The notes under the pieces were generated by a model that saw nothing but the letters and a program-made list of their open reading frames with translations, searched no databases and was not told where the DNA came from. A program made the translations under genes and the position numbers. Shown here one piece after another: positions 7,651 to 22,697 of a stretch of 64,000 bases of DNA. Each line of letters opens with the position of its first letter. Position 1 is the stretch's first letter. Source of the stretch: Planctomycetota bacterium (GTDB taxonomy: Bacteria; Planctomycetota; Phycisphaerae; Phycisphaerales; SM1A02); the NCBI GenBank assembly GCA_022574595.1, contig JACZRS010000016.1, positions 5,589 through 69,588 of the forward strand, written 5' to 3'.

Positions 7651-9180
7651 TCAAAACACTTTGCGTCGTCTTGCGGGTGGGATGTCTAATTGCTGGCGAT
7701 ATTTAACGACTGTTCGCCTCGCAATTTCTATGCCGTGCTTTTTCAGTTCATCGGATAATGCTGCATCTGACCATGGGCTGGATTTGTCTTCGCCATCTAT
7801 AATTTCTTTTAACTTCGCTTTGACAGCTTCCCACGATAGATCTTCACCACTATCAGTTGCGGTTCCGCCAGAGAAGAATTTACGGAGTGCTACTTGCCCG
7901 CGCGGAGTTTGCATCCACTTATCAGAAACTGCTCGGCTAACTGTTGCAACATGTATTCCAAGTTGGTCGGCTACATCAATCATGGGTAACGGCTTTAGGT
8001 GTTGTGGGCCGTGGTCAAAATAATCTCGTTGTCGCGTCAGAACAACATTAACCACACGAAGCAAAGTATTTTTCCGCTGGTTTATCGATTCAATTAACCA
8101 CTGTGCGTTACGAACATTATTTGTAACGAACGCGCGCGTTGCTTTCTCAACGGTCTTGTCCTTGGCCATGGTCTGGTATTGCCTGGAAATTCGCAGCGAA
8201 GGCAAAACACCATCACACAAAGCAGCTACGTATATGTCAGCTTCTTCATCATAATCAACTAGAACATCAGGAATGATCGGTGGAACATCCTCATCAACAA
8301 CATCTCGGCCTGGGCTTAAATTCAGTTTGTGCATCAACTCCATGGCAATTTGTATGTCCTGGATTGATACGTTCTTCTTCTGGGCAATCTTGGGCAAACG
8401 ATTCTGAAGTAAATCATCGTAGTGATCTGCTATCAATTCACGCACTTCTTGCCAAGTTGGGTCGTGACCTGGTTCAGATAGGAAGCGATCGACTTGCAGC
8501 AACATACATTCCTGATGATTCCGCGCCCCGACGCCGGGCGGATCGAGTCGCTCTTGAATTTCCTTCAGCGCATTTTCCAGCAATTCTAAAGTAAATTCCT
8601 GTCCGGGCACATTTTTACTTTGTTCGAGAATTGTCTCAAGATCCCCGTCAAGCAAACCATCATCATTTATATATGTAATCAACAATTCCCCAGCACTTGT
8701 TATGTCACTTTCAACTTCTGCAAATGTCCATTGATGAGATAATTGTTCCGCTAATCTTTCACCACGTGCGGGCATATTTGCAAAGGCATCCATCTTGCGG
8801 TCGCGCTCGCCATCATTTCTTGCTCGTGAAAATGTGCCTGATGAGTATTGATTATCAAAGGCATCTTGATAGCCGGATTCTAATTCACCAAGACGCTCCC
8901 AATCATCGGCAGTATCTTTACCATCTTCTCCTACTACCAGTTCGCGCTGCTCTAAGCTTTCTGCATTGTCATCGTCTGTCGTGCTTGGAGCATCCGAATC
9001 AGCTTCATGCTCAATCTGCTCGAGCGCGATGTTGGATTCCAATTCCTGATCAATGCGTTCCTGCAATGCCAGCATAGGCATCTGCAGAATCTCCATGGAT
9101 TGGATCATGCGCGGTGACAGCTTCATGTGCTGCCCCATTTGCATTTGTTGGCTGGTTTCGAATCGCATATGCACTACCAA
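7651..9180 (-). CDS. rpoN: RNA polymerase sigma-54 factor
   Basis: Gln/Met-rich region I; C-terminal RpoN box [12 protein letters not shown]. Confidence 0.9.
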
Positions 9181-9290: not shown

Positions 9291-9932
9291 CTACTTGTGT
9301 GGGCTCATGGGCTGGCGGCCTTGGATGGCATCGGTAAGCACTGCACTATTGGCGTATTCGAGCTGCGAACCGGCAGGCAACCCCCTGGCTAAACGCGTCA
9401 CGGTCACATCACGATCCGTTAGCTGGTCGGCCAAATATAAAGCTGTGGAGTCACCTTCCATGTTGGGATTTAGTCCAAGAATTACTTCTTTAATTTTAAC
9501 ACCGCGACAATTGTTCGATGGATCATCTATGCGTGAAATTAATGATTGAATGGTTAACGATTCCGGTCCAATTCCGCCAAGCGGATCAAGCCGCCCCATT
9601 AAAACGTGATATACCCCTTTGAACGTTCCGGTTTGTTCAAAGCTAATCATGTCCTTTGGTTGCTCGACAACCATGACAGATGAAGCATCGCGATTCGGGG
9701 CGGCACAAATATGGCAAATCTGTTGATCGGTTAGATTGCTACATATTTGGCAGTGCTGAACATGAGTTTTAATATCTTTGATAGCAACACTTAAGCGCAT
9801 GGCATCTTCGGAAGTTGCTTTGAGCAAATGAAACGTCATGCGCTCAGCACTACGCCTGCCTATGCCCGGCAACTTTGCAAGCTCGTCAATTAATCGTTCA
9901 ACCGGTTCCGGATGCACATTACCGGATGTCAT
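9291..9932 (-). CDS. recR: recombination protein RecR
   Basis: C4 zinc finger CQICSNLTDQQICHIC; Toprim region; conserved dnaX-ybaB-recR order. Confidence 0.9.
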   Translation of the reverse strand: MTSGNVHPEPVERLIDELAKLPGIGRRSAERMTFHLLKATSEDAMRLSVAIKDIKTHVQHCQICSNLTDQQICHICAAPNRDASSVMVVEQPKDMISFEQTGTFKGVYHVLMGRLDPLGGIGPESLTIQSLISRIDDPSNNCRGVKIKEVILGLNPNMEGDSTALYLADQLTDRDVTVTRLARGLPAGSQLEYANSAVLTDAIQGRQPMSPHK

Positions 9933-10005: not shown

Positions 10006-10383
10006 CTAAGAAATCAAACCACTAAGACCACCAGGTGGGAGTGGCAAACCTAAATCGCCCGCAGCGCTCGACATTTCCTGTTCGGCTAATTCACGAGCTT
10101 TTTCTAGTGCGGTGTTAACTGCTCCGGTAATTAATTCTTCAGCTATTACACAGTCATCCGGATTTGCAGCATCAGCAATTCCAGCAAATAAGGCTTGATC
10201 GATATGCAAACCAACAATCCGAAGCTGCCCATTCGCTGTAGCGCGTACTGCTCCACCACCGGTTTCCGCATCCACAGTCAGCTCGGCTAGTCGCTGCTTA
10301 ACTTCTTCCATCTTGGCCTTGATCTTTGGTAGATCCTTCATGATCCCAGCAAGGCCAGCCATACCTTTAAGATTATCAAACAT
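10006..10383 (-). CDS. ybaB: YbaB/EbfC nucleoid-associated protein
   Basis: MFDNLKGMAGLAGIMKDLPKIKAKMEEVKQRL... is the typical family N-terminus; synteny. Confidence 0.85.
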   Translation of the reverse strand: MFDNLKGMAGLAGIMKDLPKIKAKMEEVKQRLAELTVDAETGGGAVRATANGQLRIVGLHIDQALFAGIADAANPDDCVIAEELITGAVNTALEKARELAEQEMSSAAGDLGLPLPPGGLSGLIS

Positions 10384-10388
10384 GTTTA

Positions 10389-11810
10389 TTAACTCCCGGG
10401 ACTATCAGTTTGTTTAGGTGAAGTATGCACCGAATCGCAAACCGAAACAACATTTGCGTCAAAAATCTGAACAGCTTTTTGTATCAAAGGCATCTGCGCT
10501 GCATTTTTTAATTGTTCAGCCTTATTCGTTGGTTCATAACTACTTGATGGCTCCAGCCTTTGAGGCGCTGCGTCAGGCTTGGGTTCAACTACTGCTGAAG
10601 GAGCTTTTTCAATATTAGTTTCATGCTCCTTTGGCAGCGTAATTGTCACTGCTTCTTTCTTTTTTTTTACTTGAGAAGCTACAGGTTTTCTCGCAGGTGT
10701 GTTTCCCGCAAGCAGCGAAGCGATATCCGCAAGGTGTTCGCTCATTGCTAAACGAACCAGTGTCGCATCGAAAATTGCGCGTGCTGTTGATGAGCTTTTT
10801 ACATTTCGCGCAGCTGCATCACAGAGCGCGATCATGTGTACCAGGCCAGCCGTATCAAAGTTCTCTGTCTGTTTTATTGCGTTATCTCTAGCAGGTCCTG
10901 CTAGCGCAACCAGGTCAGTATCTTTGCCACAAGATGTAATCAGCATCAGGTCGCGCAAATGCTCAATAAGTGATTCGAGAGCTTGTTCAATACTCGATCC
11001 ACCTGCAAGTAAATCGGCACCTGATTTTAATGTCGCACTGGTATCGCTGTTGGTAATGGACGTTACCAAATTTGATACAAGCGTTTGATCGGGCAATCCT
11101 AACATTTGCTCTAAAAGTTCGCCCGTTAGAGTCTTATCCCCAGCTGCAAGCAAACGATCAAGAAGGCTAAGCGCATCGCGCATGGAACCTTGCCCAAGCC
11201 TGGCGATTTGAGTTATTACCTGTTCCTCAGCTGTCGCGCCTTCAGCTTCGATAATCATTGCAAGCTGTTTGCACATTTCACTCATCGCAAGTGGACGAAA
11301 ATCAAAGCGCTGACAGCGACTTTGAATCGTTGCCGGTACCTTTGTCACTTCAGTAGTACAAAGAATAAATTTCACATGTGCCGGCGGCTCTTCCATTGTT
11401 TTAAGAAGTGCGTTAAACGCCGGAGTCGTAAGCATGTGAACTTCGTCGATGATGTAGATTTTGTAAGGACATCGCGCGGGCGAAAGGCCAGCCCCGGCTA
11501 TTAAATCCTTTGCTTCGTTTATACCACGGTTAGATGCGCCGTCGATTTCGATTACATCCAGATCATCGCCGCGCATGATGGCATCTGATATTTCTTTGGC
11601 TTGCTCTAAGTCATCCGTGACGTTGAGTGCTTTGGCGAAAATGCGAGCCATGGAAGTCTTGCCCACACCGCGCGTGCCACAAAATAGATAAGCATGAGCC
11701 GCCCGACCTGCTTTGATGGAGTTCTCAAGCGTTCGGCAGATCGGCTCCTGACCGACAAGCTCATCAAATTCACGCGAGCGATATCGCCTTGCTAGAACCG
11801 TGTAGCTCAC
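10389..11810 (-). CDS. dnaX: DNA polymerase III subunit gamma/tau
   Basis: AAA+ motifs LFCGTRGVGKTSMARIFAKALN and IYIIDEVHML; contains an A9G run carrying an in-frame A-AAA-AAG heptamer (+10659-10668). Confidence 0.9.
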   Translation of the reverse strand: MSYTVLARRYRSREFDELVGQEPICRTLENSIKAGRAAHAYLFCGTRGVGKTSMARIFAKALNVTDDLEQAKEISDAIMRGDDLDVIEIDGASNRGINEAKDLIAGAGLSPARCPYKIYIIDEVHMLTTPAFNALLKTMEEPPAHVKFILCTTEVTKVPATIQSRCQRFDFRPLAMSEMCKQLAMIIEAEGATAEEQVITQIARLGQGSMRDALSLLDRLLAAGDKTLTGELLEQMLGLPDQTLVSNLVTSITNSDTSATLKSGADLLAGGSSIEQALESLIEHLRDLMLITSCGKDTDLVALAGPARDNAIKQTENFDTAGLVHMIALCDAAARNVKSSSTARAIFDATLVRLAMSEHLADIASLLAGNTPARKPVASQVKKKKEAVTITLPKEHETNIEKAPSAVVEPKPDAAPQRLEPSSSYEPTNKAEQLKNAAQMPLIQKAVQIFDANVVSVCDSVHTSPKQTDSPGS

Positions 11811-11874
11811 CTTCTCTCCTTGCCTTTCTAGGCGAGAAATACTGTATGAGTGTTATTACAACAATATACATTCT

Positions 11875-12000
11875 AGGTGCCAAGAATGACGGCCAGGCGG
11901 CCGAAGGCTCGGACAACGCCGCTTATGGCTGCTGCGATCAAGCTCTGACCAGGTTCACAGGCCACCCGTCCAATGGGCCCGACCGTCATTCTTGGCACCT
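11875..12000 (-). ncRNA. ffs: candidate signal recognition particle RNA (4.5S/ffs-like)
   Basis: perfect 18-bp terminal stem (11875-11892 with 11983-12000) enclosing ~90 nt; minus-strand core AACCUGGUCAG-AGC-UUGA-UCGCAGCAGCCAUAAG aligns with E. coli 4.5S domain IV ACCAGGUCAGGUCC-GGAA-GGAAGCAGCCAAGG; lies immediately upstream of dnaX as in Bacillus. Confidence 0.5.
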
Positions 12001-12049
12001 TTACGCAGAGTATCTTAACCAAAGCCTCGAGCGTGGTACACTTAGGGTA

Positions 12050-13318
12050 ATGACTGACCAAGAAATACCTCAGGATATGGACCATTCAGGGCAGATACCG
12101 GCAGAGCAGATTCCCCACGAACCAACGCCTGCTGATTTGCCAACTCTGGTAAAACAGCCTCTGCAGGAGCGGAGCGAGCGCGTCCTGATGCGCGCTATAC
12201 GCCTGATTTTTATGGTTCTGCTTGCAGTGGTGAGTCTTCTGACGATTGTCGGGCCAGTTACAGAACCGCTTGGAGGTGGAGGAGAATCAAAGTTCAGTGC
12301 CCTCGAATTTGTAATACTGCTCTTAGCTGTATTTGGGTTCGGTGTGCTGATTCTTATAGTTGATTGGCTAACACCTAACAAAAAGCTCGGAGCTGTCTTT
12401 GGCGTTTATCTTGGAATTGTCGCAGGCCTATTAGGAGCTTTGGCAGTAGGCGCACTAATAGACTTGGTCGCAGCTTCGTGGGACATAACCGGAGCTAAAC
12501 AAGAGGCATATATTGGATTAATCAAAATCACAGTTGGCATCGCACTTTGCTATCTTGCAGTATCTATCGTTATTACAACTAAAGACGATTTTCGTTTGAT
12601 TATTCCCTATGTAGAATTCGCAAAGCAAGTGCGTGGGGTGAGGCCTTTGCTGCTGGATACTTCTGCACTAATCGACGGTCGAATTGAAGGGCTGGGCGAT
12701 ACGGGATTTTTAGCTTCGCCATTAGTTCTTCCGCGCTTTGTTGTGGATGAATTGCAAACTCTCTCAGATTCAGGCGACAAACTCAAACGGGCGCGCGGTA
12801 GGCGTGGCCTGAATATGATCAGCAAACTCCAGAGTAATCCCCATATCGATATTTCAATGGATGCATCAGAAGTTACCGGCGGCTCAGTCGACCACATGCT
12901 TCTGGAACTGGCAGGACAACAGAACATGCGCATCCTTACCACCGACTATAATCTGGATAAAGTTGCGCACATTCGTGGTGTTGCTGTACTTAATATCAAT
13001 GAACTAGCAAACTCACTTAAACCTCAAGTTATCCCCGGCGAATCTTTCCCAATAGAAATCGTAAAGCGCGGAGAAGCCGCAAGCCAAGGTGTGGGCTATC
13101 TACCTGATGGAACAATGGTTGTTGTAGAAGATGCAGCTGAAAGCGTGGGTTTAGAAGTAGATGTAATGGTCACGAATTCGCTGCAAACGAGCGCAGGGCG
13201 CATGATCTTCGGCCGAGTCGCAGATGGCAGCACAGCACGACCATCCAACCAATCCCAAAGCATGGCCCACGCAGCAACCCACCAACCACGCACCCCGCCA
13301 CGGGCTGGACAAGGTTAG
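12050..13318 (+). CDS. membrane-anchored PIN + TRAM domain protein (YacL-like)
   Basis: N-terminal TM helices; PIN-like LLLDTSALIDGRIEGL; C-terminal TRAM-like GESFPIEIVKRGEAASQGVGYLPDGTMVVVE; the ORF-track start at 11789 overlaps dnaX and the SRP RNA and is rejected. Confidence 0.6.
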   Translation: MTDQEIPQDMDHSGQIPAEQIPHEPTPADLPTLVKQPLQERSERVLMRAIRLIFMVLLAVVSLLTIVGPVTEPLGGGGESKFSALEFVILLLAVFGFGVLILIVDWLTPNKKLGAVFGVYLGIVAGLLGALAVGALIDLVAASWDITGAKQEAYIGLIKITVGIALCYLAVSIVITTKDDFRLIIPYVEFAKQVRGVRPLLLDTSALIDGRIEGLGDTGFLASPLVLPRFVVDELQTLSDSGDKLKRARGRRGLNMISKLQSNPHIDISMDASEVTGGSVDHMLLELAGQQNMRILTTDYNLDKVAHIRGVAVLNINELANSLKPQVIPGESFPIEIVKRGEAASQGVGYLPDGTMVVVEDAAESVGLEVDVMVTNSLQTSAGRMIFGRVADGSTARPSNQSQSMAHAATHQPRTPPRAGQG

Positions 13319-21190: not shown

Positions 21191-21868
21191 ATGAAGCAAT
21201 TCGCGACTACATTTACATTAATTGTTTTCGTATCACTCGTATTGGCCGGTTGCAAAGTATCTTCGCCGACGGTACACAGTGTTCCGAATAGCCAGCACGA
21301 TCACACTCGTGATGACGCTGATTCGATCTTGCACACACACGAGACATTGCCAGTTCTCTCCAATTGGTGTGATGATTGTAATTTCGGCTATGTCGCGGGG
21401 CAACGAATTTCTTCCAAGGTGCTATTTGAAACGCTCGACGCTCACGGCCACGATGTGAACATTGACGCAATGACCTGCGCGTCTTGCCTTACCGCGTTGC
21501 CTGTGGGCGGCTATTGCGAATCACACCGAATAGGATTCGTCGATAGCAAAGCGTACTTCTCACGCCTGACATACTCGCTAGCTAAAGGAGGCGAGGCTCG
21601 AAATGTTTCAAGCCTTACCTGCACCACTTGCCGCGCTAATGCTCAGGAACACGGGTGGTGCGCCGCATGCCAGATTGGAATGGTGGGCAACGTAGCATTC
21701 AAGAATCGAAATGAATACACAAATGCCGTTGAGCAGTTTTCAATCCTCAAGTCTGCAATAGACAAGACAGGTGACTGTGAGATGTGTGCCAGCGCCATGA
21801 TCCTCGACAGTAGGTGTCCCCTATGCAAGATAAGCTATCAAGATGGACAGCCGATCGCCAATCCCTGA
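21191..21868 (+). CDS. cysteine-rich lipoprotein with six CxxC motifs in a repeated zinc-ribbon-like arrangement
   Basis: lipobox LVLAGC; CDDC, CASC, CTTC, CAAC, CEMC, CPLC; three repeats of CxxC-x8-12-(Y/W/R)C-xx-(H/C)-x-I-(G/S); His-rich N-terminal segment. Confidence 0.5.
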   Translation: MKQFATTFTLIVFVSLVLAGCKVSSPTVHSVPNSQHDHTRDDADSILHTHETLPVLSNWCDDCNFGYVAGQRISSKVLFETLDAHGHDVNIDAMTCASCLTALPVGGYCESHRIGFVDSKAYFSRLTYSLAKGGEARNVSSLTCTTCRANAQEHGWCAACQIGMVGNVAFKNRNEYTNAVEQFSILKSAIDKTGDCEMCASAMILDSRCPLCKISYQDGQPIANP

Positions 21869-22004
21869 CGGCCAAGGATTTCACATGAAACGCCTTTGAG
21901 AATAAAAAAAAAGAAAAAATTACGCAATAATCTTGCAAGTAATAAACTTTTATGGGACATTGTCTATGGCCTAACAAGGCCACCAAATCAAATATAGCCC
22001 ATTC

Positions 22005-22697
22005 GTGGGCTTAGAGGAGTACATCATGCGTTTTTTCAGCCACTCGTTCTGCCGCTCGTTTTTCGCTATTGCGATTGTCGCATCCGCTGCCCCGATCGCG
22101 CTGGCTGGCTCTCATTCCTGGGATATAGTCGAGATTTTCAGCAATGCCGATGGATCCATCCAGTTCATTGAGATGATGGAAACCAACGCAATGCCAAATG
22201 AGATAAACTTGGCAGGCAAGCAGGTCACAAGCAATGCGAATGCCTTTACATTCCCCAGCAACCTTATACCACCCACTACAAACAAGCACTTGCTCCTGGC
22301 TACCGCAGATTTTGCTGCACTGCCTGGTGCGCCTACACCCGACTACATAATCAAAGCTGGCTTCTTTAATCCTAATGGCGATACTCTCATGTATCACACC
22401 TATGACATCTTCAGCTTTGGTCATGACGTATTACCGACTGATTGCATCAACTCACTAAATGGTGATGGTACAACTGGCGTTAACAATCCGGAGAATTACC
22501 AGGATGTTAAAGGAACGGTTGATGCCTGTCCTCCTTGCCCCTGGGATCTTGATGGCACAGGATCCGTCGGCACAGGCGATCTTCTTGAACTCTTCGCACA
22601 ATGGGGTACAGCAGGACCAGCCGACTTCGACGAAAGCGGTGCCGTCGGTACAAATGATCTACTAATCCTCTTCGCTAATTGGGGGCCGTGTAAATAA
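22005..22697 (+). CDS. secreted protein of unknown function with the dockerin-like ANWGPC C-terminal module
   Basis: signal peptide (AIAIVASAAPIALAGS); C-terminal CPPCPWDLDGTGSVGTGDLLELFAQWGTAGPADFDESGAVGTNDLLILFANWGPCK. Confidence 0.55.
   Translation: MGLEEYIMRFFSHSFCRSFFAIAIVASAAPIALAGSHSWDIVEIFSNADGSIQFIEMMETNAMPNEINLAGKQVTSNANAFTFPSNLIPPTTNKHLLLATADFAALPGAPTPDYIIKAGFFNPNGDTLMYHTYDIFSFGHDVLPTDCINSLNGDGTTGVNNPENYQDVKGTVDACPPCPWDLDGTGSVGTGDLLELFAQWGTAGPADFDESGAVGTNDLLILFANWGPCK

Follow-up and report, generated by a model that had tools for sequence, protein, structure and literature searches.

The dnaX gene of a planctomycete genome (Planctomycetota bacterium, assembly GCA_022574595.1, contig JACZRS010000016.1), located in a 64,000-nucleotide (nt) stretch of DNA which is referred to here as the window, carries an uninterrupted run of nine adenines (A9) shortly after the region encoding domains I-III of DnaX. 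We consider it probable that this run is a conserved and selected recoding site at the boundary between the gamma and tau forms of the protein, of the type found in Thermus thermophilus, and that it operates mainly by transcriptional slippage. The mechanism itself is known; a poly-A slippage site in dnaX has apparently not been reported previously for the Planctomycetota. A literature search on dnaX, Planctomycetes and slippage returned only the study of Antonov et al. (2013; PMC3711429), in which the phylum appears merely in a table of genome counts, and neither dnaX nor the Planctomycetes is mentioned in the available part of its supplementary text.

Anatomy of the A9 run in dnaX

The gene product was identified as DnaX gamma/tau by its matches to Pfam families PF13177, PF22608 and PF12169 and to NCBIfam TIGR02397 (dnaX_nterm, 372 bits), and a protein identical to it (P0001) is annotated as DNA polymerase III subunit gamma/tau. 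The same protein, with the A9 allele, was recovered from three independent contigs and sources. Domains I-III end near residue 362 according to the Pfam and NCBIfam matches and the A9 run follows approximately 20 codons later, with the coordinates of this and the other features given in Table 1. The first-pass annotation of the window had reported an in-frame GUA AAA AAA AAG AAA GAA with the slippery heptamer A AAA AAG, and this was confirmed on the minus strand, where the zero frame reads GTA AAA AAA AAG AAA GAA (V381 K382 K383 K384 K385 E386). The heptamer corresponds to nt 1146-1152 of the gene and its first A occupies the third codon position.

Beyond the run, the tau-specific part of the gene continues for 89 codons without interruption in the zero frame. 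In the -1 frame, ERSSDNYAAKGA is followed by TGA, with 12 sense codons past the heptamer; the estimate made previously, a stop after about 13 codons at about residue 380, was close to this, the predicted product having 396 amino acids (aa). In the +1 frame a stop is reached 3 codons past the heptamer, and there are thus near stops in both shifted frames.

Conservation of the run and selection on its nucleotides

At the protein level, KKK is found directly past domain III in all of the closest homologues. The underlying run is A10 in L082 (93% aa identity to the DnaX of the window) and in L083 (87%), both of which keep tau in the zero frame as the window does with its A9, and is A11 in L081 (88%), where the tau C-terminus lies in the +1 frame (167 aa, ending ...MPLIQKAVQIFNADVVSV...). 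The zero frame of L081 ends after 10 codons at the same stop as is used by the -1 frame of the window (10621..10623), giving the annotated 395-aa protein P0004. When all Planctomycetota-labelled genome loci with a covered linker were considered, a run of A7-A10 was found between residues ~373 and 419 in 19 of 23, and it was also present in 11 of the 12 closest metagenome loci (L084-L095). The position of the tract is kept among relatives as A7-A12. A run of A9 or longer occurs in 30 of 54 loci that are at least 42% identical to the query vs 15 of 106 more distant loci. A metagenome scan for closer relatives of the dnaX of the window found none above 61% identity.

The runs persist in genomes of 63-73% guanine plus cytosine (GC) which otherwise spell lysine as AAG. 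In the 15 loci of at least 60% GC with an all-A run of at least nine, the other lysine codons of dnaX are AAA in 32 cases vs AAG in 132 (AAA 19.5%), and the probability of three consecutive AAA codons arising by chance in such high-GC loci is about 7e-3 per locus, or 1e-32 overall if the loci are independent. No other A/T run of nine or more was found in 143 kb of Planctomycetota loci and their flanks, and such a run lies inside a 300-nt linker interval in 17 of 26 loci. As the A-only spelling has been kept against a bias towards AAG, selection appears to act on the nucleotides and not on the lysines that they encode.

A similar picture emerges from the stop codons. In the high-GC relatives, off-frame open reading frames (ORFs) usually extend for 40-100 codons, yet both shifted frames end 0-12 codons from the run. 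Across 16 A9/A10 loci, the enrichment of stops near the run gave Fisher combined p-values of 8e-6 (-1 frame), 1e-4 (+1 frame) and 1e-13 (both), which ignore phylogenetic non-independence and shared ancestry and should be considered as upper bounds on significance, although their direction is unambiguous. The comparative evidence lies far beyond chance, and the anatomy of the site, its conservation and the selection at the nucleotide level are established here. The proposal made in the first-pass annotation, that this is a recoding site producing a gamma-like DnaX, thus gains support from the conservation of the run in relatives, its resistance to the AAG bias and the near stops. The conservation which had been suggested as a check was found for the run itself, in the three closest relatives as well as in the genome and metagenome loci counted above, and only in part for the heptamer, the terminal G of which is specific to the window, with relatives having longer pure A runs (A_AAA_AAA).

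Runs of A9/A10 at the same position after domain III were also observed in dnaX from some metagenome-assembled genomes (MAGs) outside the planctomycetes, among them Clostridia, Ignavibacteria, Chitinophagales/Bacteroidetes and Puniceicoccaceae (dnaX linkers of L027, L028, L030, L032, L044, L056, L061, L108, L121 and L153). In those metagenome loci that were examined, neither shifted frame stays open for more than a few codons. This would fit a wide but patchy distribution of poly-A recoding in dnaX.

Probable transcriptional slippage and alternative explanations

If the run acts by transcriptional slippage, RNA polymerase would slip on the T9 tract of the template strand and produce mRNAs with 8, 9, 10, 11 and more A's. 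Those with nine A's, or with three more or three fewer, would be translated into the full-length tau-like DnaX of 473 aa with its conserved C-terminal motif; those with ten would be read in the -1 frame to give the 396-aa product (stop 10623-10621), and those with eight or 11 in the +1 frame to give products of 387 and 388 aa (stop 10648-10646). The short products would be gamma-like clamp-loader subunits comprised of domains I-III and devoid of the tau C-terminus. The embedded A_AAA_AAG may add ribosomal -1 frameshifting into the same 396-aa product, with the 6-bp hairpin that follows it probably irrelevant. We infer that slippage does occur here, chiefly during transcription, and that gamma is both made and used. 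The junction peptides predicted are KKKERSSDNYAAKGA and ...VKKKERSSDNYAAKGA for the A10 mRNA or for -1 programmed ribosomal frameshifting (PRF), and ...VKKRKKQ and KKRKKQ for the A8 mRNA.

Four features favour transcription as the level at which slippage would take place. Runs of 9-12 A's have been kept where 7 would suffice for ribosomal frameshifting, and a +1 stop has been kept for which -1 PRF has no need. There is no consistent structure downstream of the A9/A10 loci as a class (A9-A11; mean z -0.45, n=29), nor is an E. coli stimulator supported in the window; a nascent-RNA hairpin as a stimulator of slippage was likewise sought, and no consistent structure was found in the 45 nt upstream (mean z -0.37). 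Lastly, tau is out of frame in both directions among relatives, in the +1 frame in L081 and L164 (both A11) and in the -1 frame in L165, L139, L003, L005 and L084, and relatives with an out-of-frame second ORF in both directions have been used as a criterion for transcriptional realignment (Antonov et al., 2013; PMC3711429).

The variation in run length is most pronounced in one lineage, 69% identical to the DnaX of the window, in which three lengths occur between 1,200 nt of identical flanks: A10 (41 contigs, a 606-aa protein, tau in the zero frame), A11 (2 contigs, 406 aa, tau in the +1 frame) and A12 (11 contigs from several SRA projects, 404 aa, tau in the -1 frame). The contigs are 18-30 kb in length with several genes each, and in the A11 and A12 forms gene callers have annotated a truncated dnaX and, separately, an orphan ORF devoid of Pfam matches (153 aa in L164, L168 and L170). 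This is either a true tract polymorphism in an essential gene or a recurrent error in the assembly of homopolymers. Tau is essential in those bacteria that have been studied, and unless the A11 and A12 genotypes are assembly errors, their persistence with tau out of frame presupposes slippage at the level of the RNA or of the ribosome.

A different arrangement was found in six Phycisphaerales loci (L002-L006 and L084), in which the run close to the end of domain III is limited to A7 or A8 and invariably begins at the third codon position, so that it reads A_AAA_AAA. GC-rich hairpins of -32 to -39 kcal/mol (z -2.5 to -4.1) are present in L003-L006, with the stem beginning 6-7 nt past the run in L003 and L005, and GGAG or GGAGG lies 11-14 nt upstream in L002, L004, L005 and L006. 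In L003, L005 and L084 the zero frame closes 0-5 codons past the run, with the tau C-terminus encoded in the -1 frame. RF00382, the Rfam family of the E. coli dnaX element, matches none of the six. Run, hairpin and Shine-Dalgarno (SD)-like motif together make up the full three-part signal in the style of E. coli in this subgroup, a class of cassette to which the window bears only a superficial resemblance.

It is possible, and we put this forward tentatively, that these two observations belong together as instability of the tract at two levels, DNA length and RNA polymerase slippage, coupled with repeated switches between transcriptional and translational recoding within the Planctomycetota. 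The length of the DNA tract would then drift freely from A9 to A12, even in one lineage with identical flanks, and the drift would be tolerated because RNA polymerase slippage spreads the transcripts over three frames whatever the templated length, whilst sister lineages would have swapped the long tract for a cassette like that of E. coli (SD-like motif, A_AAA_AAA and a strong hairpin). Should this be true, tau would in practice be free of constraint on its genomic frame, and single-base changes in the tract could readjust the gamma:tau ratio.

The strongest competitor to slippage during transcription is -1 ribosomal frameshifting of the E. coli type as the main mechanism, in which a faithfully transcribed mRNA would be slipped upon at A_AAA_AAG (10665-10659) with stimulation by the hairpin to yield the 396-aa gamma; we think it unlikely. 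In such systems a single tRNA-Lys (anticodon UUU) reads both AAA and AAG, making AAG shift-prone. The in-phase heptamer of the window is, of those known in E. coli, the one most prone to shifting (PMC5009743), a -1 stop is nearby, and the 6-bp hairpin is placed at the canonical spacing of 6 nt and folds better than shuffled sequences (z ~-2.7 to -3.0). Furthermore, the pairing of GGAG/GGAGG 11-14 nt upstream with hairpins of -32 to -39 kcal/mol in L004-L006 means that such cassettes can evolve within the phylum.

However, the stem-loop to which the first-pass annotation had drawn attention does not stand up well as a stimulator. GCAGUG/CGCUGC is indeed present 6 nt downstream of the heptamer, but it is weak, with a folding energy of -6.6 (to -7.6) kcal/mol vs -19.7 kcal/mol for the E. 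coli dnaX stimulator folded identically, and 4 of its 6 pairs are lost in one or more of the three close relatives (L082, L083 and L081). Across these and the window, 75% of cells are paired with no covariation, and 500 of 500 shuffles were as good. It also competes with a larger and more stable interrupted hairpin, for which the four sequences contain two compensatory changes and 78% of cells are paired (89 of 500 shuffles as good), and which does not appear when L083 and L081 are folded. The 6-bp hairpin is thus probably not a functional stimulator and the significance of the larger one is uncertain. In the window, L082 and L083, the 25 nt upstream contain no SD-like element (GGAG, GAGG, AGGA or AGGG), and the region 10450-10800 of the window gave no RF00382 match at E up to 10, with only chance-level matches to other families, compared with 96.8 bits (E = 1.8e-22) for the E. 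coli site used as a positive control. The G of the heptamer is not conserved, and ribosomal frameshifting would leave unexplained why there are 9-12 A's instead of 7 and why +1 stops are enriched. Transcriptional slippage on an A9 run as in Thermus, which had been offered as a further possibility alongside the ribosomal site, is of the mechanisms proposed at the outset the one that fits best.

There are several points which weigh against transcriptional slippage at a selected site and which mean that it should be considered with caution. The run is missing in 4 of the 23 Planctomycetota loci and is not universal, shared ancestry affects the combined p-values as described above, and errors in the sequencing or assembly of homopolymers could account for some of the differences in run length between assemblies. 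The support for two DnaX isoforms is comparative in kind, and that a planctomycete RNA polymerase would slip on A9 is something we infer. In addition to the E. coli heptamer and the spacing of the hairpin in the window, any run of at least A9 holds an in-phase A_AAA_AAA in every phase, so the finding that the A9/A10 runs of relatives occur in phases 0, 1 and 2 is not decisive against ribosomal frameshifting. The statistics from the window alone are unremarkable and none is significant: A9 occurs twice in the 64 kb vs 1.49 expected, with 38 of 100 shuffles reaching two, AAAAAAG occurs 8 times vs 15 expected, and stops at least as close in both shifted frames are found at 13% of codon positions in dnaX (P = 0.13), a gene of 47% GC. 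The genome of the window is 47-48% GC and its dnaX uses AAA in 11 of 15 other lysine codons; the argument from codon bias therefore covers the relatives and not the gene of the window.

These properties of the window, including an expectation of about 1.5 A9 runs per 64 kb, are also what would be predicted if there were no programmed recoding here, the A-run simply encoding a lysine-rich KKK patch in the flexible linker by means of AAA, the codon preferred locally, with any slippage being noise and either a single DnaX being made or gamma arising by proteolysis as is known in Caulobacter (PMC5009743; bioRxiv 10.1101/2022.11.10.516041). The KKK peptide is conserved, and constraint on the protein could contribute. 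We nevertheless regard this explanation as rather improbable, as strongly AAG-biased relatives still spell the patch entirely in A and end both shifted frames early, and as relatives with a shifted tau C-terminus must recode in order to make an essential protein. Within the window, AAA-AAA is otherwise under-represented among Lys-Lys pairs (5 of 41) and the A9 of dnaX is the only A/T run of at least eight in coding sequence, which, along with the lack of other runs of nine or more in the 143 kb of relatives, is not what an incidental lysine patch would lead one to expect. A hypermutable homopolymer at the DNA level (replication slippage or phase variation) or an assembly artefact, with the isoform set by genotype, is very improbable: run length does vary among close relatives (A9, A10, A10, A11) and between assemblies with identical flanks (A10, A11, A12), and poly-A tracts are slippery for DNA polymerases too (PMC3711429), but the A9 allele of the window recurs in three independent contigs and sources, the contigs concerned are long and multigenic, and the out-of-frame tau genotypes (A11/A12, 13 contigs) would be lethal without slippage at the RNA or ribosome level, so that variation in the DNA presupposes recoding rather than replacing it.

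Known systems and other features of the locus

Transcriptional slippage at dnaX was described in Thermus thermophilus, where, according to the accounts of Larsen et al. (2000) given in PMC1088944 and PMC5009743, an A9 run is accompanied by stops in both non-zero frames. The window shares with it a sense-strand A9 downstream of the domains common to gamma and tau, a single unbroken ORF for tau, stops a short way off in both non-zero frames, such that any change in the mRNA that is not a multiple of three would give gamma, and no evident dedicated RNA stimulator. Judged by its sequence, the window would therefore be placed with the Thermus type. It differs in coming from the Planctomycetota (a Phycisphaerae-like MAG), with the site known from sequence, in its longer -1 tail (12 codons), in the G which ends the run and creates the E. 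coli heptamer, and in its short tau of 473 aa, with 89 residues past the site.

In E. coli, ribosomal frameshifting at dnaX is established (PMC5009743), and gamma is split from tau at the same post-domain-III boundary as in Thermus (PMC5009743, PMC1088944). The E. coli element represented by RF00382 has in common with the window the gene, the boundary, an identical in-phase A_AAA_AAG, a hairpin starting 6 nt downstream and an early -1 stop. Of the four features of this element that were examined, only the heptamer is found in the window, which has neither a stable conserved stem-loop, nor an upstream SD-like stimulator, nor a match to RF00382; moreover, its run is A9 and not A6, and its -1 tail is 12 codons vs 1.

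A bioinformatic study has listed two-ORF dnaX genes with poly-A runs of A7-A10, comprising 17 genes from 12 genera with the Chlorobi named (Antonov et al., 2013; PMC3711429). The relatives with out-of-frame tau (L081, L164, L165, L139, L003, L005 and L084) resemble these in having poly-A at the gamma/tau junction and a frame-shifted tau, whereas in the window tau is in the zero frame and dnaX is not a two-ORF gene. In Caulobacter crescentus, gamma results from partial proteolysis of DnaX by ClpXP (PMC5009743; bioRxiv 10.1101/2022.11.10.516041). The outcome is the same as that proposed here, two DnaX isoforms from one gene, but the mechanism is post-translational with no slippery tract, and it does not account for the conservation of the poly-A nucleotides.

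Considered alone, the window would be a well-supported yet unsurprising example of a known mechanism. In current annotations such genes appear in one of two ways, as one tau ORF or as a shortened dnaX accompanied by an orphan ORF of ~150-160 aa with no Pfam match (L081, L164 and L168), and recognition of the site would correct the annotation of dnaX across a phylum which is represented largely by uncultured MAGs. It would also add to the evidence that bacteria have repeatedly evolved ways of producing gamma alongside tau, a point relevant to the question of what bacteria need gamma for. The Planctomycetota provide a comparison set in which long A-tracts without RNA structure stand beside in-phase A7 runs with E. 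coli-like stimulators, and which could serve in investigating the replacement of one kind of recoding, transcriptional or ribosomal, by the other. A short study would be merited by the conservation across the phylum, the co-occurrence of the two architectures and the polymorphism in tract length.

Table 1. Location of the dnaX features in the window and of the corresponding elements in related loci.
Feature	Location	Strand	Details
dnaX coding sequence	10389..11810	-	From ORF list and translation; GTG start; zero frame gives tau-like DnaX, 473 aa
A9 homopolymer (T9 on the template strand), proposed slippage site	10660..10668	-	Third base of codon 381 to second base of codon 384
In-phase A_AAA_AAG heptamer inside the A9 run	10659..10665	-	Possible secondary -1 ribosomal frameshift site
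TGA, -1-frame stop	10621..10623	-	Would end the 396-aa gamma-like product ...VKKK-ERSSDNYAAKGA
TGA, +1-frame stop	10646..10648	-	+1 tail KKQ; would end the ...VKK-RKKQ product of 387 aa (A8 mRNA) or that of 388 aa (A11 mRNA)
Tau-only C-terminal motif MPLIQKAVQIFDANVVSV	10440..10493	-	Residues 440-457; would be missing from gamma-like products
6-bp hairpin GCAGUG-acaauua-CGCUGC	10634..10652	-	One U-G pair; 6 nt past the heptamer
Larger interrupted hairpin	10586..10645	-	18 bp, 20-nt loop; starts 14 nt past the heptamer; -19.5 kcal/mol, z = -4.2
E. coli-like cassettes	L003:4134-4200; L004:4158-4225; L005:4125-4195; L006:4134-4200		
Polymorphic lineage, A10	L166 and L167:2694-2703		
Polymorphic lineage, A11	L164:1441-1451		
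Polymorphic lineage, A12	L168:2694-2705; L169-L171		

The part of tau that would be absent from the gamma-like products has no Pfam domain in the window. It does contain a C-terminal motif, P-[LIV]-[VI]-x-x-[AV]-x-[DE]-x-F-x-[AG]-x-[IV], which recurs at the C-termini of relatives even where these are frame-shifted (L081 in +1; L003 and L005 in -1). When 10389-10656 (-) of the window was compared with L081:4154-4660 and L083, an extra segment of ~80 aa (...LWAQVCKIAA...KVDNL..K.FDG..L.LA...) was seen in L081, P0003/L083 and P0005-P0007 between the linker and the terminal MPLIQKAVQIF motif. This segment is absent from the window, from L082 and from the more distant P0019, P0054 and P0099, and its absence looks like a lineage-specific internal deletion of a C-terminal domain of tau; neither version of the region matched a Pfam family.

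Elsewhere in the window there are no tRNA genes, and no Rfam family was matched in a scan of the whole 64 kb at gathering scores. The second A9 run (21904-21912, +; AAAAAAAAAG) is intergenic, flanked by one ORF that ends at 21868 and another that begins at 22005. Downstream of dnaX are ybaB (10006-10383), recR (9291-9932) and rpoN (7651-9180), and upstream is a divergently oriented ORF (11789-13318), the upstream neighbour in the relatives L165/L166 having PIN and/or TRAM Pfam matches. In several Phycisphaerales relatives, a gene for SRP RNA (RF00169) is found just upstream of dnaX (L003:2433-2531, L004:2762-2858, L005:2842-2940 and L006:2701-2797).

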